Made by a program: the position numbers and the translations under genes. From contig OY762897.2 in the NCBI GenBank assembly GCA_963666515.2, positions 2,656,001 to 2,720,000 of the forward strand: a DNA stretch of 64,000 nucleotides, read 5' to 3'. This document shows positions 1-31,224 of the stretch, one piece after another. Position 1 is the stretch's first letter. Every line of letters begins with the position of its first letter. This DNA comes from Candidatus Binatia bacterium (lineage in GTDB: Bacteria > Desulfobacterota > Binatia > UBA9968 > JAJDTQ01). Under the pieces are notes generated by a model. The model did not search any database and was not told where the DNA came from. It saw nothing but the letters and a program-made list of their open reading frames with translations.

Positions 1-634
1 TGACCAGGAAAATCCCTTGTGAATACAGGTGGTTGAGCCAACTGAAGTCCACGTAGCCCCGGTCCGCCACCAGGATGCTGCCCTGGGGCAAGGTCAGCGC
101 CCGCGCTCCATGGATGTCGGAAGTCTTGCCGTCGGTGATGTTGACGAAGGTCGGCAAATAACCGTCGTGGTCCAATCCCATGTGCACCTTCACCGCTCCC
201 TTGGTGGTACGGAACTTTGCCCACGGAAACAGCGACGGACACAAGTCGATGGTGCTCGCATCCAGTGAGTACAGCTTGTTCTTGAAGCGAAACTTGTGTC
301 CCGGCGCCTGACTCCGACAGCGGCCCAGCAACTTGCCGAACACCGCCTCGTATAACGTATACGGCTGCTTTTCGTTCACCCGCGCCAACGACGATCGGCT
401 CACCCCCTTCACCCCAAGGTGATACTGCTTGTCCGCTTGCACCTCCAGGTTCCCCACGATGTCCCGCAGACTGCTCCGCCCCGCCAATTGCCCCAGCACC
501 ATCGCCACGAACTGCCCCCACCGCGTCATCTTCCGCAGCCGCCGCCCCTCGTGGTGCTCCCGCGCCTCCCTCTCAAATTCATGTCTCGGCACCAGCTTGA
601 GTATTTGCCCCAGTACGGTATGATTGTATGCCAT
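1..634 (-). CDS. IS4-family DDE transposase (DUF4372 N-terminus), partial
   Basis: Not in ORF track. Manual translation from ATG at 634: MAYNHTVLGQILKLVPRHEF...SLRDI...LYSLDASTIDL...AVKVH...ILVADRGY (DDE motifs); runs off window. Confidence 0.9.
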   Translation of the reverse strand, partial: MAYNHTVLGQILKLVPRHEFEREAREHHEGRRLRKMTRWGQFVAMVLGQLAGRSSLRDIVGNLEVQADKQYHLGVKGVSRSSLARVNEKQPYTLYEAVFGKLLGRCRSQAPGHKFRFKNKLYSLDASTIDLCPSLFPWAKFRTTKGAVKVHMGLDHDGYLPTFVNITDGKTSDIHGARALTLPQGSILVADRGYVDFSWLNHLYSQGIFLV

Positions 635-734
635 GGACCTGAACCTCCCTGTTGATGGGGTTTGGATCATTCCATCATAACACAGGCGAGCTCTTCAGGT
701 CCTCCCCCGTTCGTATTTTTGTGGGACAGCAGTG
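1..734 (-). mobile_element. IS4-family insertion sequence, left end (continues beyond window)
   Basis: Transposase ORF on minus strand; candidate terminal inverted repeat CACTGCTGTCCCACAAAAA (minus strand) ends at 734; the other end lies outside the window. Confidence 0.8.
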
Positions 735-801
735 TTTTGGGATACACTGTTCCCGACGTCGTAGTGTAGTGGTAGCACAACTGCCGATTAGAGGAGTACC
801 A

Positions 802-1641
802 ATGCAGAAAGCGGAAAGCGCGGGTTCGATTCCCGACGGCGTTAACTCAGATGAGATTCCCATTTCGCAGCCGTTGCAGTTGCTGCTCAGAGATATCGGC
901 AGCGCCGTATTCGCACTCAATACCGCTGTCGTAGGATTAGACGCCGTAGAAAACGGCTACCAAAAGCCCGTTTCGTTAAATATCTCTTGGACGCCGCATG
1001 ATCGAAAAATTGCCGCCAGAAAATCGCGCAAATTCCTACTCGAAAGTGTATTGGTTCGCGTTTCAACCACGATCTATGAATATGTATCCGTGTTGAGCAA
1101 GCTAACTAGATTCGCGATTGTCCGGGAGAAGTGGCATAAGGACACTACAATTTCCGAACGAATTTCGACGATTGCAGCAGAAGTGCTGGACAAAGATGAC
1201 TACCTGATTCCTGGAGTAGTTTTGCTGGTTCATTGGCGAAACCGCGTTGTACATCCAAATTCAACCGCAAAACTCAAGCCGCATGAAAAACAAATTCTGC
1301 TAAAGAACGAGGACATAATCTCAGACAGATACAAGGGATTGAGGACAAGTGAACTTCTACAACACTTCGGAGATCAGCGGCCAAAGCTCAAAGATATTTC
1401 TTCCCTAATCTCGATGACAATCAATCTAGCGCGCAAAGTGGACAGAAATATGCAACTAAATCTTAACAAAGCTGATCTAGATGCGTGGTTAGAACATTAT
1501 CAACTGATTCCCATGTTGAAAAAAATAGAGATGGAAACGTCTCCGGACAAATACAGAGCGTCAGTTTGTCGACTTCTAAAGTCCCGGGCGCCACGCTTGC
1601 TTGATGCATATCTGCAATATCTGCACCACTACAAACCATAG
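802..1641 (+). CDS. Hypothetical protein with HEPN-like RxxxxH motif
   Basis: RBS GAGGAG before ATG 802; lower GC; WRNRVVH motif in a helical-looking protein. Confidence 0.6.
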   Translation: MQKAESAGSIPDGVNSDEIPISQPLQLLLRDIGSAVFALNTAVVGLDAVENGYQKPVSLNISWTPHDRKIAARKSRKFLLESVLVRVSTTIYEYVSVLSKLTRFAIVREKWHKDTTISERISTIAAEVLDKDDYLIPGVVLLVHWRNRVVHPNSTAKLKPHEKQILLKNEDIISDRYKGLRTSELLQHFGDQRPKLKDISSLISMTINLARKVDRNMQLNLNKADLDAWLEHYQLIPMLKKIEMETSPDKYRASVCRLLKSRAPRLLDAYLQYLHHYKP

Positions 1642-1771
1642 CCCCTCGTAGTCGTCTACAGGCCAACCGGCACCACGGGCGGCCACCCGGCATCCCGGCA
1701 CCGGACTCCAGCCTATCTTCTCAAGGGCTCGCCATCAAGCGTAACTAGCCAAGTCTGACCGCGAATATCAC

Positions 1772-2554
1772 CTATAGCCGATTAAGTTCAAGTTTTATGT
1801 AATTGAGGGACTGTCGCACCCAGTTCTCGATGTCTGCGAGACTGGTTGGACCGTGCACGTGTTCGTCGTGTGGTGGCGATTTCCACCATGCCGCTGCGCT
1901 GGCGAAATGGATCCGACTGAGCCTCTGGGCCGTCACCAAGTCACGTACATCGACGTTCGAGAGTTGCGGGTTGAACTCATGAATCTCTGGTTCTGCTTCA
2001 GTTTTGAGGTGGCTGAGCAACTGCGCGGCGCGTTGAGACAAGTCGTCATCCGGTAGACTGTCCAGGGCGTCAAACTGCCAATGCGGATGGCCGGCATCAG
2101 CAGCCTGGAAGCTGTAGTCATCACCACTCCACCTTGCCCAACCGGCCCATTCGGCTCGAAACATCTGCGGTTTGAAGGCATCGTTCCTCAGTCCAAAATG
2201 AATGGAAAGCCCGACTGACCTGAAGGAATATCTACGGATGCCATGGCTCCGCTGTTCTTCATCCCATTCCTCACGGTATCCGAGCCATACCCAGAGGCCT
2301 TGTCCAAGACTCAACACTGGCGCGACAGAGACAGGCCTCCCGCGATTCCGAGGAATAGTTTCACAACCGGACCCGCGCAGACCGCCTATCAATTGCCGAT
2401 GGGCGAATTCGGCTACGACCTGCAACAGGGCCGACCCATCGACCGCAGCTGCGAGAATTTTGCCACTCTGCTTGAAATGCGTATCGAGTTTCGATTCAGA
2501 GGCGATTAGTGGTGCAGGCACGCCGTCAAACCCGATCAAGGAAATCGCCACCAT
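1772..2554 (-). CDS. Hypothetical protein (FRAEW...GHPHWQ motif)
   Basis: 260-aa ORF overlapping the 3' end of the methyltransferase gene. Confidence 0.75.
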   Translation of the reverse strand: MVAISLIGFDGVPAPLIASESKLDTHFKQSGKILAAAVDGSALLQVVAEFAHRQLIGGLRGSGCETIPRNRGRPVSVAPVLSLGQGLWVWLGYREEWDEEQRSHGIRRYSFRSVGLSIHFGLRNDAFKPQMFRAEWAGWARWSGDDYSFQAADAGHPHWQFDALDSLPDDDLSQRAAQLLSHLKTEAEPEIHEFNPQLSNVDVRDLVTAQRLSRIHFASAAAWWKSPPHDEHVHGPTSLADIENWVRQSLNYIKLELNRL

Positions 2555-4979
2555 AGAGTTCGGTCGTGTTGCGATCTACCGAATCTCTCCAGCTATCTTC
2601 AGCAAAGCGAGGTTCTCGACCCAATTCGACTAACCTGGAAATCAAACGACCCTTTCGCTCCTCTCTGGCAAGATCGACTAAGTCGGGTATCGGAATGTGT
2701 CCAACGTACCTAGGGCTGAGATTGAATTGGCCACCCGCAACATGTGGTGAGAAGATTTCCAATACCCTGCTAAAGGGACGGGAATTCATGATGGCAGTGT
2801 AGGCGCACACTAGGTCGGCAACTGGAAGCACGGTCTCTTCCTCTTCATCGTATGGTTGCCCGGCCTTTAGAAACCAGACATACCCTTGGACGACTAAAAA
2901 ATCTGGCTTCAAATCAACTGCGAAACCACCTGATCCACCGAAGTATTTCGAAACCAAACGCGATGTAGAATTGAAGGCCCAGGTCGCTCGCCTTTCAGAA
3001 AGCCCCCACCAATCTTTACGGTCGGCACGTATGAGACTCCTTCTAGCGATCAATCCCTCACGTCTGGGGATCAGAAAACTCTGAGCATACGCGGGAACCG
3101 CTGCCAGCAATTCATCTTCCGTCTTGAAACGTGGACCTTCGATGTCGTAGGGAAAAAACACCCAATAGAGCCGCTGAAGCCGTCCATCCTGAATGGAATG
3201 GTTCATGACTGCTGGTTTGAAAAACGACTTTTCTTTCTTTGGAAGTGCCTCGAAGGCGTCCTTGTCGATGACGAAAGCCTTGTTGTCGCCGGTAAGCACG
3301 CCCTGGTGGACCTGGAAGAGATCGGACACACGTGCGGCGCCGGCATCAATGAGCTTGGACAGAGCTGCTTCAGTCTTGGGCGTCGTCAATCGCCATGTTC
3401 GGCGTGACTGCAATTTTGCGGTTGGTACCTCGAACAAGCGCCATGCATTATCCTCGCCACTGTCGAATGCTCCCCGGCGAAATCGGCGCAACGTGCGTAA
3501 CGCGTCACCCGTAGCTTCGGCACTGTTGGTCGTGACCAGGGCCGTGGTGGTGCCGCGACGCGCTACAGAACTGGTTGGCTTTAGCATGACTGCTGCCGCC
3601 ACCTGAACGAGCGCATGCGCAAAGAGCCCATAGTCGCCCAGCGAGGCAAGCAAACGCAAATCTGTCCTCTCCAGTAGATCCGCACGCCAAGCCTCTGCGG
3701 CCTGGAGAGTCAACAGACTGGAGGGCAGCAACACACCCATGGCGCCGCCGGTGGAGAGAATATCAATCGCGTGGCTAACAAAGGCCATGCTAAAATCGCC
3801 TCGTCCTTGGAGACGATTACCCAGCACTTGTCGCATTTGGTGGCGCTGCGCGTCATCAAGGGAAGGCCACGCGATGAAAGGCGGATTCATCAGCACAACA
3901 TCCGCGAGCGGAAGCGGTTCGGCCAGCGAGTCGGCGACCCGAACGTCGATCTTGACACCACGGTCGGGGGACCAATCCGCGGCAGCGTGACGAACGATGA
4001 AATTGGCCATCGAGATCGCGGCTCGCGACGTATCACGACCAACCATTACGATCTCACCAGCGAAATTTAGCCGCCGCAACGCCCGAAGCGCCTCATGAAG
4101 AAATGAGCCAGAGCCGCAAGCCGGATCAAGAACCGTAAGCCGCTCCCTACTGTCCAAGCCTTCAACTTGCAACAGCGTTTGCTCGGCGACACAGCGGGCC
4201 AGCGCCGCGGGCGTAAAGTGGGCGCCCCCACGTGTAACCGGTTTGACCTCTGCGGGTCCGGCATAGCTAAAGAGATCGAGGCTTGGAGCACGGACGAGCT
4301 CAAAATGAGCTTCCTGGAAGATTTCGCTGCCCGCGTGGCGCACGGCGAGGGATGGGTACAGGCGGAAAGGCCGTAGCGAAGTGGGTTCGCGAAGCTCCCT
4401 GACAAGGGAATTGACGCCATTCTTAGGTAACTCACGAAGAAGCTCGGCACCATCGTCAGCGTTCAGGAGTGCGATGCGGTCTCTACCGCTCGCTTCATGT
4501 CGGTCCTGCTCGATGATCTGCGTGAGAAAGGCAAGGAAGGCATCTGTGCTTTGTTCATCGGGAAGACCTGCGTCAGCCACTAAAGACCGCATACGACGGA
4601 ACAAGTTGAGCACATAATCAACCACTCTCTGGCTGGATTTCACACGATCGGTGGCGAGGTAGCTGTAGAACGATTCGATCTGGGCTTCGACGCTGGGTCT
4701 GGAAAGCACTTCAGTTCGGGAGCTATCCCAACGCGTAACAGCGACGACTTTGTCCGTCACCGTTACATGATGGGGCAAATCGCTTGACCAAGCCCAGCAG
4801 GCGGTTTTCTTGTCGAGCCAAAGCTCTTCGGCGGTTTCAGACATCGCAAAACTGCCGTAACCGCCGTCGAGCAGTACAGCATGAGAGCCTGCGGCATCCA
4901 CTTCTTCGGTCTCAAACAACGGCGTCAATGCTAAGCCAAACTGACCGGCCCAGCGTTGTGGCAGTCCATCCATAATCAC
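2526..4979 (-). CDS. N6-adenine DNA methyltransferase, gamma-class (Eco57I/TaqI-like) with C-terminal target-recognition region
   Basis: Motif X (GAHFTP), motif I (LDPACGSGSFL), motif IV (MNPPF), TRD-like GVLTGDNKAF. Confidence 0.88.
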   Translation of the reverse strand: MIMDGLPQRWAGQFGLALTPLFETEEVDAAGSHAVLLDGGYGSFAMSETAEELWLDKKTACWAWSSDLPHHVTVTDKVVAVTRWDSSRTEVLSRPSVEAQIESFYSYLATDRVKSSQRVVDYVLNLFRRMRSLVADAGLPDEQSTDAFLAFLTQIIEQDRHEASGRDRIALLNADDGAELLRELPKNGVNSLVRELREPTSLRPFRLYPSLAVRHAGSEIFQEAHFELVRAPSLDLFSYAGPAEVKPVTRGGAHFTPAALARCVAEQTLLQVEGLDSRERLTVLDPACGSGSFLHEALRALRRLNFAGEIVMVGRDTSRAAISMANFIVRHAAADWSPDRGVKIDVRVADSLAEPLPLADVVLMNPPFIAWPSLDDAQRHQMRQVLGNRLQGRGDFSMAFVSHAIDILSTGGAMGVLLPSSLLTLQAAEAWRADLLERTDLRLLASLGDYGLFAHALVQVAAAVMLKPTSSVARRGTTTALVTTNSAEATGDALRTLRRFRRGAFDSGEDNAWRLFEVPTAKLQSRRTWRLTTPKTEAALSKLIDAGAARVSDLFQVHQGVLTGDNKAFVIDKDAFEALPKKEKSFFKPAVMNHSIQDGRLQRLYWVFFPYDIEGPRFKTEDELLAAVPAYAQSFLIPRREGLIARRSLIRADRKDWWGLSERRATWAFNSTSRLVSKYFGGSGGFAVDLKPDFLVVQGYVWFLKAGQPYDEEEETVLPVADLVCAYTAIMNSRPFSRVLEIFSPHVAGGQFNLSPRYVGHIPIPDLVDLAREERKGRLISRLVELGREPRFAEDSWRDSVDRNTTELYGGDFLDRV

Positions 4980-5443
4980 CGCGACACCGCCATGACTGGG
5001 AAGAGGGATAACTGATCTGGACGTGCTAAAGACAACTTGGAAGCAAGGACTATGAGATGGGACTCCAGCGGCAGGATCAAGCCAGTCTGGCCAATCTTGG
5101 AGACATCATCGACGAGTAGGGCGGTTTGGCGGTTCGGAAAGAACACTGAGGAGCGCCAAAGCCGCGGAAATGCGGCGCTATCCAACTTCTCTCTGAGATT
5201 CTCTGCAGCCGGAGCCCAAGCTCCCACCTCGGCTGCGAATTCATTATGTAAGACGAGAAGGAGTCGCAGGACAAGCAGGGTCTGCCAAGTGTAGAGCGCA
5301 TGTCGGCCCGGGCCGTCTGGGCGGATATCTGGCGAGATTAACTCACGGCGCCCACGTCCCGTCCATTCGCGAAGTTGGCTGCGCGTTAGGCCGGTCGCCT
5401 CCAGCGCGTCGGCAGATTGAAAGAGTCTCATGGCGACTATCAT
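4976..5443 (-). CDS. MerR-like HTH DNA-binding protein (start may be 5431)
   Basis: ADALEATGLTRSQLREW...GRHALYT resembles a MerR-type winged HTH; GTGA overlap with the MTase start. Confidence 0.7.
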   Translation of the reverse strand: MIVAMRLFQSADALEATGLTRSQLREWTGRGRRELISPDIRPDGPGRHALYTWQTLLVLRLLLVLHNEFAAEVGAWAPAAENLREKLDSAAFPRLWRSSVFFPNRQTALLVDDVSKIGQTGLILPLESHLIVLASKLSLARPDQLSLFPVMAVSR

Positions 5444-5462
5444 ATTTTAGGAGTATCACACC

Positions 5463-5491
5463 TCCATAGTGGGTACAATACCCACTATGGA
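5463..5491. promoter_or_regulatory. Perfect 13-bp inverted repeat, candidate operator
   Basis: TCCATAGTGGGTA-CAA-TACCCACTATGGA about 20 bp upstream of the HTH gene. Confidence 0.7.
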
Positions 5492-5566
5492 CCTTGTATC
5501 GCCGTCTTCCTGCACGACAAACGGAGACCACCTCATCCAGCGCCGGCCTCCGGGGGCCAGTTGGAA

Positions 5567-5878
5567 GCGGCGGTTGATGGCGTCAAGAGGGCGGTAGAGC
5601 CAGTCGCCGAGATACATGGCCGCATACCGCCGATAGCCCCGCTCGGTGCTGGCTGCGCGACCGTGGCACGGACTCGATGTAGTCCATGCAGGCTTCGCCC
5701 AGTCGCGGCAGGGCGCGTGCGTCGGCGCGTTCCCCCGCAGGGTCGTCGCCTGCGGCGACGCGTCCGAGCAACTCCTGGGCTAGACGCCTTGCTTGGTCCG
5801 GGACGACCCGATCCAGGGCTCGTCTTCGACCTGAGAGCGTCTAATGTGCGCTTGGTCAGCGCGAGCTTTACCTTTGAA
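5567..5878 (-). pseudogene. Tyrosine integrase N-terminal remnant (arm-DNA-binding, DUF4102-like)
   Basis: Pieces in shifting frames: SKVKLALTKRTLDAL / EPWI / PDQARRLAQELLGRVAAGDDPAGER / YLGDWLYRPLDAINRR; no catalytic domain. Confidence 0.7.
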
Positions 5879-5935
5879 ACCCGCCCCTACATGGACATGA
5901 GACGCCCTGCCCACTGGCCACGGCCTCGCCGCAGC

Positions 5936-6931
5936 CTACTTCATCCGGTGCAGCACGTTCTCCGCCAGGGCCTGCAAGTATTCCTTCCGTCCCGACAGGT
6001 CCTTGGGCATGTTGAGCAGGGTCATGCCCACGTACTCCACGCCGTCCTCGGCGAGGCGGCTCAGGTCCTCCAGGCAGTCGTCGCCGTTGCCGGTGACGGC
6101 CCAGGCGCTGACTTCGGAGTCGGAGGCGATGTTGATCTTGACCATGGTGTCTTCCTGCATGTTCCAACTGCTGTACATCTTGTAGGAAGACGCCGCGGAC
6201 TCGCGCGCCTGGGCGATGGCGGTCTCGCGGTCGGGGGCATAGGCCACGCCCCGGGAAATGGTGATGTGGCCGGCGTCCTGGCCCGTGACGCTGCGCTCGT
6301 CGCGGTAGATGGAGATGAGACGGGCGACGTCGTCGAAGCCCACCTGGGGTGCCAGGTAGGCGGCGTCGGCGATGCGGGCGGATCGGCGCACCGCGCCTTC
6401 GCTCTGGCAGGCGATCCAGATGGGGGGATGGGGCTTCTGAATGGGCGTGAATCCCATCTTGGCGCCGTGCACGGTCCAGTACTTGCCCTCGTGGTCGATC
6501 TCCTCGCCGGTCCAGAGCTTCTTCATCACCTCGATGGACTCGGTCATGCGCGAGGCCCGCTGCTTGCGGTTGGAGCCGATGGCCTCGAGCTCGGTGTCGC
6601 GGTAGCCGAGGCCCACGCCGAGCACGAAGCGGCCCTTAGCGATGTGGTCCAGGGTGGCCACGTCTTCCGCCACCTGGAGCGGGTTGTGGAGCGGCAGCAG
6701 CACGATGCCGGTCTGGAGCCGCATCTCGCCCACCTCCGGGGCCAAGCGCGCCAGCATGGGGAAGGGCTGCGGCCAGATGGTGGGGTGCGACACCCAGTGC
6801 TGGGGCATGGTGATGGCGGCGAAGCCGCAGTCGCGGGCGACGTGGCAGATTTCCACGGCGTCGTCGATCTGTTCGTGCAGCGGGCGCGCGGGGTTGGTGA
6901 AGAAAGAACGGAAATAGATGCCAAGTTCCAC
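5936..6931 (-). CDS. LLM-class flavin-dependent oxidoreductase
   Basis: PQHW, LLPLHNPLQVAEDVATLD, GRFVLGVGLGY, PIQKPHPPIW; GTG start after AGGAGG. Confidence 0.9.
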   Translation of the reverse strand: MELGIYFRSFFTNPARPLHEQIDDAVEICHVARDCGFAAITMPQHWVSHPTIWPQPFPMLARLAPEVGEMRLQTGIVLLPLHNPLQVAEDVATLDHIAKGRFVLGVGLGYRDTELEAIGSNRKQRASRMTESIEVMKKLWTGEEIDHEGKYWTVHGAKMGFTPIQKPHPPIWIACQSEGAVRRSARIADAAYLAPQVGFDDVARLISIYRDERSVTGQDAGHITISRGVAYAPDRETAIAQARESAASSYKMYSSWNMQEDTMVKINIASDSEVSAWAVTGNGDDCLEDLSRLAEDGVEYVGMTLLNMPKDLSGRKEYLQALAENVLHRMK

Positions 6932-7005
6932 TGGAGTCCTCCTGAAGGGTGAACCTACTTCATGGCAAGTGGGGCCTGTCCTTGTCAAACTGCGCCCCGC
7001 CCCAC

Positions 7006-7033
7006 CTGGATTCCGGCTTTCGCCGGAATGACG
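7006..7033. repeat. CGTC-type REP palindrome
   Basis: CTGGATTCCGGCTTTCGCCGGAATGACG, recurring at 9.7, 35.8 and 37.0 kb. Confidence 0.85.
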
Positions 7034-7115
7034 GGAGGGAGGCCGGGAATGACAGAGGGGCGGGGCGGGATCGGCAAGTTGACAGAAACCGGCACGTCCA
7101 CTAACACGTAGCGGC

Positions 7116-8522
7116 ATGGCTTCATCATCCACTGGAGGGGGTCCCGAGGTTGACGTGCTCATCGCGGGCGGGGGGAACGCGGCGATGTGCGCGGCCATCA
7201 TGGCCCGTCACGGGGGCGCCAGCGTGCTGGTGCTGGAGGCGGCGCCCAAGGCGTTTCGGGGCGGCAACAGCCGGCATACGCGCAACCTTCGCTACATGCA
7301 CGAGGGCGAGGACGGGTTCCTCACGGGCACGTATCCGGAGGACGAGTTCTACGAGGATCTGCTGCGGGTGACCGGCGGCGACACCAACGAGGAGCTGGCG
7401 CGCTTCTGCATCCGCGAGTCCCAGGACGCGGGCGAATGGATGTCGGCCCACGGGATCAAATGGCAGCCGTCGCTGCGCGGCACGCTGCAACTTTCGCGCA
7501 CCAACGCCTTCTTCCTGGGCGGCGGCAAGGCGCTGGTGAACGCCTACTACGACACCGCGGAGAAGATGGGCATCCAGGCGGAGTACGAGACCGAGGTGCG
7601 GGACCTGAACATCGAGGACGGCGTGTTCCGCTCCGCGGTGGTGGAGCACAAGGGCCAGACGCGCGAGGTGGCGGCCAAGGCCTTCATCGGCGCCTCCGGC
7701 GGCTTCGAGGCCAACGTGCCGTGGCTCAAGGAATACTGGGGGGACGCCGCGGACAACTTCATCATCCGCGGCACGCCCTACAACAAGGGCCGGGTGCTGC
7801 GGCAGTTGTTCGACGCGGGCGCCAAGCCGGCGGGGCGGGCCAAGGGCTTCCACGCTATCGCGCTGGACGGGCGCGCGCCCAAGTTCGACGGCGGCATCGT
7901 GACCCGGCTCGACTGCGTCCCCTTCGGCGTCGTGCTCAACAAGAACGCCGAGCGCTTCTACGACGAGGGCGAGGACTTCTGGCCCAAGCGCTACGCCATA
8001 TGGGGCACGCTGATCGCCGGCCAGCCGGAGCAGGAGGCCTATTGCTTCGTGGACGCCAAGTCCATCGACCTGTTCCTGCCTTCGGTGTTCCCGCCCTTCC
8101 AGGCGGACTCGGTGCGGCAACTCGCCGCGGCCCTGGACTTGAACCCGGCCAAGGCGGAGGAGACGGTCAACGCGTTCAACGCCTCGGTCAAGCCCGGCGC
8201 CTTCGACCCCACGATCCTGGACGACTGCTCCACCGAGGACATGGACCCGCCCAAGAGCCACTGGGCGCGGCCCATCGACACACCGCCGTTCTACGGCTAT
8301 CCGCTCAGGCCGGGGATCACGTTCACCTACATGGGCGTGGCCGTGAACAAGCAGTGTCAGGTGCTGTTCGGCGAGGACCGGCCGTCGCCCAACATCTTCG
8401 CGGCCGGCGAGATGATGTCCGGCAACATCCTCGGCAAGGGTTATCTGGCGGGATTCGGCATGACCATCGGCACGGTGTTCGGCCGCATCGCAGGAAGGGA
8501 GGCCGCGCGTGCCATCGCCTGA
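7116..8522 (+). CDS. tcuA: FAD-dependent tricarballylate dehydrogenase TcuA
   Basis: GGGNAAMCAA, GGNSRHTRN, RAPKFDGGIVTRLDCV, GNILGKGYLAG. Confidence 0.92.
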   Translation: MASSSTGGGPEVDVLIAGGGNAAMCAAIMARHGGASVLVLEAAPKAFRGGNSRHTRNLRYMHEGEDGFLTGTYPEDEFYEDLLRVTGGDTNEELARFCIRESQDAGEWMSAHGIKWQPSLRGTLQLSRTNAFFLGGGKALVNAYYDTAEKMGIQAEYETEVRDLNIEDGVFRSAVVEHKGQTREVAAKAFIGASGGFEANVPWLKEYWGDAADNFIIRGTPYNKGRVLRQLFDAGAKPAGRAKGFHAIALDGRAPKFDGGIVTRLDCVPFGVVLNKNAERFYDEGEDFWPKRYAIWGTLIAGQPEQEAYCFVDAKSIDLFLPSVFPPFQADSVRQLAAALDLNPAKAEETVNAFNASVKPGAFDPTILDDCSTEDMDPPKSHWARPIDTPPFYGYPLRPGITFTYMGVAVNKQCQVLFGEDRPSPNIFAAGEMMSGNILGKGYLAGFGMTIGTVFGRIAGREAARAIA

Positions 8523-9659: not shown

Positions 9660-9745
9660 CGGATCCGTCATTCCGGCGAAAGCCGGAATCCAGAAACATG
9701 ATGGATGGACTCTGGATTCCGGCTTTCGCCGGAATGACGGATCCG
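9660..9745. repeat. Inverted REP doublet (REPIN-like) between convergent genes, likely terminator/stabiliser
   Basis: GGATCCGTCATTCCGGCGAAAGCCGGAATCCAG ... CTGGATTCCGGCTTTCGCCGGAATGACGGATCC. Confidence 0.85.
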
Positions 9746-31106: not shown

Positions 31107-31224
31107 GAACTGCCCTTCGACTTCGCGACGCTTGCGCGTCGCTACGCTCAGGACGAACGGAGAAAAGGCTACCTCATCCGTTCGTCCTGAGCGTAGCGGA
31201 GCGCAAGCGGAGTGAAGTCGAAGG
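31107..31224. repeat. Second palindromic repeat family, inverted doublet
   Basis: CCCTTCGACTTCGC...GCTACGCTCAGGACGAACGG and its reverse complement; also at 33563 and 34939. Confidence 0.8.

Follow-up and report, generated by a model that had tools for sequence, protein, structure and literature searches.

What does a DNA adenine methyltransferase do when a small protein of no known family is always encoded behind it? This question is raised by a three-gene cassette in a 64,000-nt stretch of Candidatus Binatia bacterium DNA (contig OY762897.2, positions 2,656,001 to 2,720,000), which we call the window. The cassette encodes a helix-turn-helix (HTH) protein, a gamma-class N6-adenine methyltransferase (MTase) and a partner protein with conserved His motifs. 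A sequence-only reading by a model had proposed an undescribed restriction-modification (R-M)-like or methylation-guarded defence system with the His-motif protein as its effector. The operon, the operator and the strict linkage of the genes held up in our analysis, and the effector role is still a proposal. The reading we favour, held tentatively and with slightly less than even confidence, is that the cassette is a mobile, self-regulated R-M-like module. In this module the partner would be the effector, acting in trans and dependent on the MTase, and a nuclease-fold domain at the MTase N-terminus would be a scaffold. An R-M-like module is favoured because the partner keeps invariant charged residues while the N-terminal domain keeps none, because the linkage is strict, and because intact partners occur beside broken MTases.

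The methyltransferase and the partner are inherited as a pair

A scan of 185,579 species genomes gave 46 loci, and the open reading frames (ORFs) of these loci were then searched with hidden Markov models. The partner was found in 45 of the 46 loci. An MTase gene lay directly upstream of it and in the same orientation in 44, the exceptions being a locus at a contig edge (L029) and one with a 40-aa fragment (L040). Conversely, all 44 loci with an MTase have the partner directly downstream. Among 401 genomes from the phylum of the window, two have the family of the MTase N-terminal domain, the same two and no others have the partner family, and the genes are adjacent in both. In another order, MTase and partner occur in the same one of 221 genomes, which is the seed genome only. 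Two plasmids carry the same trio or pair, annotated as "N-6 DNA methylase" and "hypothetical protein". Pairwise divergences of the two proteins are strongly correlated (r = 0.95, 666 pairs), and no third or fourth gene is conserved beside the pair in the relatives' loci. The sequence-only reading had staked its proposal on partner homologues being tied to methyltransferases, and both the 44 of 46 loci and the matching genome sets (2 of 401 and 1 of 221) agree with it.

Decay of the cassette was also seen. The MTase is broken and the partner intact in five loci (L017, L030, L034, L039 and L041). In L030 (5789-6984), the catalytic domain of the MTase has been deleted (profile positions 220-657), while the HTH and partner genes are intact. 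In L027 the partner is truncated and the MTase intact, in L026 one deletion runs across both, and in L011 (5779-6972) a DDE transposase gene or insertion sequence (IS) element lies between them. An intact partner beside a broken MTase fits a partner that is harmless without its MTase.

The methyltransferase has a predicted nuclease-fold domain without canonical catalytic residues

The N-terminus of the MTase was modelled by AlphaFold from a 34-sequence alignment, with a predicted local distance difference test (pLDDT) score of 82.6. In the model, a small alpha/beta domain (residues 1-93) precedes a helical bundle. The N-terminal 262 residues belong to no Pfam family, and a search of PDB sequences with the profile of this domain returned designed helical proteins only and no relative. 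Fold comparison was more informative. Among the 48,161 chains covered by VIA-align, residues 1 to ~115 resemble HsdR (3h1t, Z 6.0), BpuSI (3s1s, 5.9), EcoR124I HsdR (2w00, 5.9), Hjc (1hh1/1gef/2wcw, 5.4-5.7) and DrdV (7lo5, 5.5), together with TT1808, Can2, Card1 and McrC. Overall, Z for the nuclease-fold domain ranges from 5.3 to 6.0. The top Foldseek rows, which are weak, are likewise DrdV and Hjc (E 0.017-0.03). For residues 118-233, the matches are to helical domains at the N-termini of HsdM proteins and of the Type ISP enzyme LlaBIII (2okc, 5ybb, 2ar0, 7vs4 and 4xqk; Z 4.5-4.9). This helical domain ends in an invariant RHAGxxxFQEAH motif, with R214, H215, A216, Q222, E223, A224 and H225 invariant. 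Since the top fold matches, each modest in Z, agree in kind, the models support a Type IIG architecture for the protein, with a nuclease-fold domain, a helical domain, the MTase domain and a target-recognition region (TRD) in that order.

The residues expected of a nuclease are a different matter. The sole invariant residues of the N-terminal domain among the 34 homologues are G15, G39, G42 and S65, and there is no invariant D, E, K or H in the nuclease fold. H33, D38, H70, H71, R83 and D85 are kept in at least 90% of the sequences. Each of these six is missing from some divergent members that retain the partner, and for H33, H70/H71 and R83-D85 the loss is in the clades L038/L044 or L045/L046. 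The Pfam family MmeI_N (PF20464), whose alignment shows the canonical D-x9-ExK, does not match this MTase but does match another gene of the same genome, and hhalign of the two profiles gave 0.55%. Conservation of the N-terminal domain is 0.57, against 0.63 for the catalytic domain. The domain is probably functional but not a canonical nuclease. The sequence-only reading had named an ordinary Type IIG nuclease domain at this N-terminus as the outcome that would count against it. The modelled nuclease-like fold and helical domain go in that direction. The lack of a canonical D...ExK, of any invariant charged residue and of a match to MmeI_N does not.

The gene matched by MmeI_N is a 918-aa ORF elsewhere in the genome (L060, G000:C1:2114204-2114680; E 4e-34). 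Its alignment row is without the D and the ExK kept by other members, and the ORF possibly encodes another methylase of this genome whose nuclease domain is degenerate.

Another possible explanation is that the MTase is a complete Type IIG-like enzyme, cutting with a non-canonical His/Asp-based site in its N-terminal domain, and that the partner is an accessory protein such as an activator, a dimerisation or loading factor, or an infection sensor. Vsr is a nuclease of the restriction-endonuclease-like fold with a His-containing active site, which is in favour of such a site here. The N-terminal domain itself has this fold, matches BpuSI and DrdV, is under purifying selection and conserves H33, D38, H70, H71, R83 and D85 in at least 90% of the 34 sequences. 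These H, D and R residues are nevertheless not invariant, and H33, H70/H71 and R83-D85 have been lost in clades that still have the partner. MmeI_N misses the domain (hhalign 0.55%), and it is the partner that shows the conservation pattern expected of a catalytic protein. An accessory role has a precedent in MtsB of MANTIS, as outlined in the consulted part of its report (10.64898/2026.09.23.753747). On balance we find this explanation unlikely.

The partner protein belongs to no known family

Homologues of the partner numbered 226 in a word-indexed search and formed 365 clusters at 50% identity in an exhaustive profile search. Nearly all members are 230-280 aa long and, wherever they are named, they are called "hypothetical". 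An alignment of 48 members, down to 22% identity, has W97, R133, E135, W136, P157, H158, W159, P236 and W245 invariant and Q130, D162, H216, W223, H232 and E256 near-invariant. Both elements of the FRAEW...HPHWQ pattern that had been noticed in the 260-aa protein are present, and R133, E135, W136, P157, H158 and W159 belong to them. Searches of Pfam, PADLOC, NCBIfam and PHROGs returned nothing for the partner, not one of 31 + 38 members carried a Pfam domain, and the partner profile gave 0 matches to PDB sequences. No fused form occurs among longer proteins, which is weak evidence. The model of the partner (pLDDT 78) begins with a helix, continues as a large antiparallel sheet (residues 43-137) and finishes in helices, and a search of it against BFVD returned nothing. 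The earlier remark that no PD-(D/E)xK, HNH or PLD motif was obvious in the partner is in line with the Pfam, PADLOC, NCBIfam, PHROG, PDB and fold searches, in which no nuclease family was recognised.

Two candidate identities were rejected. The partner is not strongly acidic (isoelectric point ~6.3), as a DNA-mimic anti-restriction protein would be. The sequence-only reading had also noted that the R-x-E...H-P-H pattern recalls DUF2290/DUF6516-type proteins. ESM Atlas ranked DUF2290 26th for the partner (feature score 0.86). PF10053, the Pfam model of DUF2290, matched none of the 31 + 38 members at E <= 10 and <= 0.01, and a whole-genome scan with it found no match in the window's own genome. 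The hhalign probability between the partner and DUF2290 profiles was 0.24% (E 0.25), with a single sequence also at ~0.2%. DUF6516 and all other Pfam models miss the family as well, so this kinship was dropped. DUF2290 is the helicase partner in the "Helicase+DUF2290" antiphage system (Rousset 2022, as listed in the consulted part of PMC10952713). It is likewise a small protein beside a large DNA enzyme in a defence context, with a superficially similar R-x-(D/E)...HP..H pattern. Its neighbour is a helicase, whereas that of our partner is a methyltransferase, and there is no detectable homology between the two.

Polar residues conserved in a fold that matches nothing known would also suit an effector that does not cut DNA. 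Such a partner could act on RNA, nucleotides or a modified base once the MTase meets unmodified foreign DNA, following the logic of abortive infection. No particular chemistry has positive evidence behind it, and no ATPase or sensor gene is conserved nearby in the relatives' loci. Methylation-linked defence with non-classical effectors does exist in BREX and MANTIS, as far as the consulted parts of the sources describe them. We give this explanation little credence, and the least of those considered here.

The methyltransferase core and target-recognition region

The catalytic motifs of the MTase are intact. Residues 250-471 match Pfam N6_Mtase (E 3e-17), with further matches to MmeI_Mtase and Eco57I. 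The best PADLOC model is MTase_II (PDLC03226; residues 249-766, E 4e-28). In motif I, D285, P286, C288 and G289 are invariant among the 34 homologues, and at least 90% of these have S290 and G291. Motif IV (N365-P366-P367-F368) is invariant in the same set. The assignment of the 817-aa protein as a gamma-class N6-MTase, already made from the sequence alone, is borne out by the Pfam N6_Mtase match and these motifs. The closest PDB sequences are M.BseCI (7qw5, E 2e-14) and CamA (7lni, E 3.4e-8), which are the best solved relatives of the core and TRD. The M.BseCI match starts at residue 251 of our MTase and residue 16 of BseCI, and the CamA alignment spans residues 313-706. The N-terminal 250 residues, with the nuclease-fold and helical domains, are left uncovered in both. 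The TRD is conserved about as well as the remainder of the MTase.

That CamA is an orphan and is among the closest solved MTase cores suggests a reading of the cassette in which there is no restriction. The MTase would then be an orphan methyltransferase of mobile elements, serving in anti-restriction protection or epigenetic control, and the partner a non-toxic cofactor or regulator of methylation. Integrative elements and plasmids carry the cassette, partners beside broken MTases are undamaged, no nuclease fold was found in the partner, and the TRD is not hypervariable. These points favour such a reading. Against it stands the strict pairing with a protein in which certain Arg, Glu and His residues never vary, and it is difficult to see why a methylase and nothing more would retain and conserve a nuclease-fold domain. 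The genome of the window has the cassette in a defence island, and the predicted tight autoregulation by a dedicated operator would be typical of toxic gene pairs. We regard an orphan methyltransferase as an improbable answer to the question posed by this locus.

The HTH protein and its operator

The HTH protein consists of a MerR-like winged HTH (~residues 5-65) and a conserved ~85-aa domain in a 20-sequence alignment. The sequence-only reading had called the HTH MerR-like. Its nearest PDB sequence, Alr3614 (7xn2, E 1.4e-4), agrees with this, while the match to MerR_1 is weak and falls below the Pfam cut-off (E 0.007).

The operon is preceded by a perfect inverted repeat, TCCATAGTGGGTA-caa-TACCCACTATGGA, which is complementary at 13 of 13 positions, as first noted, and has the core TAGTGGG-N7-CCCACTA. 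Just one other perfect inverted repeat is listed for the 64-kb window, and the core pattern TAGTGGG-N7-CCCACTA occurs once there against 0.08 expected by chance. Each arm contains a -10-like TATAGT/CATAGT. A simple promoter and terminator scan gave nothing on the gene strand, and no RNA data set carrying the cassette was listed among sequencing runs.

The HTH gene is present in 20 of the 44 paired loci, and 3 of the other 24 have too little upstream sequence to tell. A search of the relatives for the dyad, allowing up to 2 mismatches to the core, placed it at the start of the HTH gene in 10 of the 20 loci that have one (L001, L002, L003, L004, L006, L009, L011, L016, L020 and L022) and at that position in none of the 24 paired loci without the HTH gene. 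In the other 10 HTH loci the HTH proteins have diverged further, and different palindromes are present in some of them. From the co-occurrence of the dyad with the HTH gene in relatives, it is well supported as the predicted autoregulatory operator of the HTH protein, and the earlier suggestion that the HTH has an operator of its own is strengthened. In six loci (L002, L003, L004, L006, L009 and L020), a gap of 4-6 nt separates the end of the dyad from the ATG of MRLFQ, which suggests that the HTH message in relatives has little or no leader. L022 (3891-3963) has two dyad copies 52 nt apart before its HTH gene, and its cassette adjoins the mercury-resistance genes MerT and MerR.

How the cassette may work

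In the R-M-like module that we favour, the MerR-like HTH protein would bind the 13-bp dyad, which overlaps its own promoter and start, and would control the HTH-MTase-partner operon. The 817-aa MTase, with intact motifs and its own TRD, would be active and would mark host DNA at a predicted target site. Its nuclease-fold domain, which by a putative residue mapping lacks the canonical catalytic residues, is probably a scaffold. The partner would supply the effector chemistry in trans, and metal-dependent DNA cleavage seems the most likely form of it. It would act only when docked on the MTase, which would provide DNA recognition as Mod does for Res in Type III systems.

A more far-reaching version is possible, though we doubt it more than we believe it. 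The partner would found a new class of DNA-targeting effectors, with a new fold and an R-x-E ... H-P-H-W ... D ... H ... H site, armed by docking on the dead nuclease-fold domain of a Type IIG-like MTase. The whole would be an undescribed two-protein R-M type, present in at least 9 phyla and equipped with a MerR-like controller.

Several observations weigh against the partner as effector. Its residues 160-235, which include the H216 and W223 motifs and fall in its most conserved C-terminal half, were modelled at a pLDDT of only 50-67. A small catalytic motif could be hidden in this low-confidence half. Foldseek of the partner model against the PDB found nothing at E <= 1e-3. The best VIA matches were Med17C (Z 6.9), capping protein (5.1-6.8) and TriTu (5.9), all inside the background of the tool. 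There was no nuclease, PabI-type or HNH entry among the fold-search matches listed, a listing that does not exclude them. An intact partner beside a broken MTase equally fits a harmless, non-effector partner, and some of the MTase frameshifts may be assembly errors of metagenome-assembled genomes. The TRD is not hypervariable. The positions of D...ExK in the nuclease-fold domain appear to be occupied by H33 and S43/S47, an assignment made from the strand register of the secondary structure, without residue-level superposition. Finally, an HTH gene, an M gene and a partner gene in one operon are an unusual layout for a controller-regulated R-M system.

Comparison with known systems

The MTase has the same domain order as the Type IIG/IIL enzymes (BpuSI 3s1s, DrdV 7lo5 and the MmeI family). 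The N-terminal domain here has neither the D-x9-ExK seen in the MmeI_N alignment, nor an invariant charged residue, nor a match to MmeI_N. Those enzymes act alone, whereas in all 44 loci the MTase gene here has a distinct gene for a 250-aa protein behind it. The MTase is presumably 100-200 aa shorter than they are. As in a classical Type II R-M system, it has intact S-adenosylmethionine-binding and catalytic motifs. In the product of the adjacent "R" gene, no nuclease fold was recognised in a model whose C-terminal half is of low confidence.

The controller (C) proteins of classical Type II R-M systems of the PvuII, AhdI and Esp1396I type are XRE/HTH_3-type proteins of ~80 aa encoded in C-R order. 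Here too a small HTH gene heads the unit, with a palindromic operator at its own promoter and, in relatives, little or no leader. By analogy, autoregulation of a potentially toxic gene pair is the likely purpose of the HTH protein and its operator. The HTH protein differs from the C proteins in being MerR-like rather than XRE-type and 150 aa rather than ~80 aa long, with an extra C-terminal domain. It heads an HTH-M-partner operon, not a C-R operon, and only in 20 of 44 loci.

In Type III (Mod/Res) and Type I systems, it is the methyltransferase that recognises DNA on behalf of the nuclease subunit. We propose a similar dependence of the partner on its MTase, and the intact partners beside broken MTases are consistent with it. 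The partner differs in having no helicase or ATPase domain, and the MTase has its own TRD. No sequence or fold relation to these systems was found.

BREX (PglX) and MADS (MAD2) were rejected as identities, since the PglX models scored 35-39 bits against cut-offs of 500-900 and MAD2 scored 38 against 720. Among 150 flanking ORFs of 43 loci there were no PglZ, BrxC/L, MAD or MtsA/B/D genes. MANTIS (Gao_RL) was rejected as well. According to the consulted part of its report, it is a four-gene system with an alpha-class MTase, in which MtsB is an accessory protein without a known fold needed by the defence methyltransferase (10.64898/2026.09.23.753747), whereas the pair here has a gamma-class MTase. 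The pair is not recognised by PADLOC, and RefSeq names the partner "hypothetical protein". No description of the pair was found in the literature, with supplements outside the scope of the search.

Gene layout and genomic neighbourhood

The coordinates of the cassette and of its neighbours in the window are given in Table 1. The cassette comprises two or three genes over 3.7 kb. The three coupled genes described by the sequence-only reading were confirmed, with the stop codon of the HTH gene and the start of the MTase gene overlapping in GTGA at 4976-4979, and all lie on the minus strand. The ATG of the partner ORF, at 2554, is 29 nt inside the 3' end of the MTase gene. Two of the listed starts should probably be moved. 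The relatives' HTH proteins begin at the Met of MRLFQ, with the dyad 4-6 nt before it, so the HTH start in the window is probably ATG 5431 (MRLFQ...). The N-termini of the partner family align with V12 of the 260-aa ORF. For this reason its start is likely GTG 2521, 5 nt past the MTase stop, giving a product of 249 aa.

Table 1. Positions of the cassette genes, their domains and motifs, the proposed operator and the neighbouring genes in the window
Feature	Position	Strand	Remark or evidence
IS4-type DDE transposase gene, 3' part	2..670	minus	Pfam DUF4372 + DDE_Tnp_1
Convergent neighbour ORF, ~280 aa, outside the conserved module	799..1641 (ORF listed from 652)	plus	RNRVVH (Rx4H, HEPN-like) motif
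Partner gene	1772-2554	minus	260-aa ORF
HPHW motif of partner	2078-2089	minus	
RAEW motif of partner	2147-2158	minus	
MTase gene	2526-4979	minus	817-aa ORF, GTG start
MTase C-terminal target-recognition region (TRD)	2529..3554	minus	PADLOC MTase_II, CamA alignment
MTase catalytic domain, gamma-class N6-adenine	3555..4244	minus	Pfam N6_Mtase, MmeI_Mtase, Eco57I
MTase motif IV NPPF	3876-3887	minus	alignment of 34 homologues
MTase motif I DPACGSG	4107-4127	minus	alignment of 34 homologues
MTase residues ~113-245, helical domain, HsdM/Type ISP-like	4245..4643	minus	model, VIA
MTase residues 1 to ~112, restriction-endonuclease-like (PD-(D/E)xK-fold) domain without canonical catalytic motif	4644..4979	minus	model, VIA
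HTH gene	4976-5443	minus	155-aa ORF
Perfect inverted repeat, proposed operator	5463..5491	.	13-bp arms, 3-bp spacer

The cassette lies in a low-GC island, with 43-61% GC over roughly 500-5500 against 63-71% to the right. Leftward from it, the order is the convergent ORF, the IS4-type transposase gene, a PIN gene and a Type I R-M locus (hsdM, hsdS, hsdR). The full transposase gene encodes 392 aa (in L051) and marks the edge of the low-GC island. Left of the window (L051, G000:C1:2641001-2656700), a DUF4365 gene, two DUF1828/DUF1829 genes and small ORFs lie between hsdR and hsdS. Judged by gene content, the Type I R-M locus, the PIN gene, the IS4 element and the cassette form a defence island. 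The convergent ORF had no Pfam, PADLOC or NCBIfam match and gave weak Atlas leads to HEPN_RiboL-PSP / EC042_2821 (0.80-0.84). A homologue of it stands beside the cassette solely in the closest relative, L001.

In 13 of 43 loci of relatives, a gene for an integrase, resolvase, transposase or relaxase is no more than two genes away from the cassette. Defence-type genes occur within the same distance in 8 of 43 (AbiEii, HEPN, KAP NTPase, AAA_15/21, HsdR and an Eco57I-type MTase). The carriers are scattered sporadically over at least 9 phyla. They include Alpha- and Gammaproteobacteria, Desulfobacterota, Gemmatimonadota, Acidobacteriota, Verrucomicrobiota, Planctomycetota, Spirochaetota, Actinomycetota, Chloroflexota and Poribacteria. 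Among the cultured carriers are Qipengyuania aquimaris, Hyphomonas oceanitis, Roseomonas elaeocarpi, Methylobacterium sp. GXS13, Sphingomonas segetis and Roseitranquillus sediminis. By all appearances, the cassette is horizontally acquired and mobile.

A few other features of the window were noted. ARAGORN called a "tRNA-???" with a four-base anticodon (atta) at 755-844 on the plus strand, inside the 5' part of the convergent ORF, and this call is probably a false positive. No gene is evident at 5492-5935. A 511-aa plus-strand ORF (5417-6952) overlaps a luciferase-like oxidoreductase gene (5936-7201, minus strand) in high-GC DNA and is probably a spurious antisense frame of it. Hairpins were found at 9660-9745 (35-nt arms, 100% complementarity) and 31114-31224 (48-nt arms, 90%). 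The first holds a GTCATTCCGGCGAAAGCCGGAATCC-type sequence, and its translation, SGFRRNDG / RHSGESRNP, recurs in ORFs near 7000, 8330 and 9690. This recurrence suggests a dispersed element like the repetitive extragenic palindromic (REP) sequences.

Implications

What is novel here is a partner without a known fold, together with a MerR-like controller, beside an MTase of Type IIG-like build whose nuclease domain is degenerate. New folds and reagents have classically come from restriction enzymes. Should the partner be the effector, the cassette would represent a restriction-like system that cuts with a component from outside all known nuclease families. Because the module is small (3.7 kb) and is carried by cultured strains, the hypothesis is directly testable. 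Since such modules are annotated as a lone "N-6 DNA methylase" and a "hypothetical protein", defence-system finders miss them. If true, the reading proposed here would add to the view of "Type IIG" methylases with dead nuclease domains as hubs that recruit varied effectors in trans.

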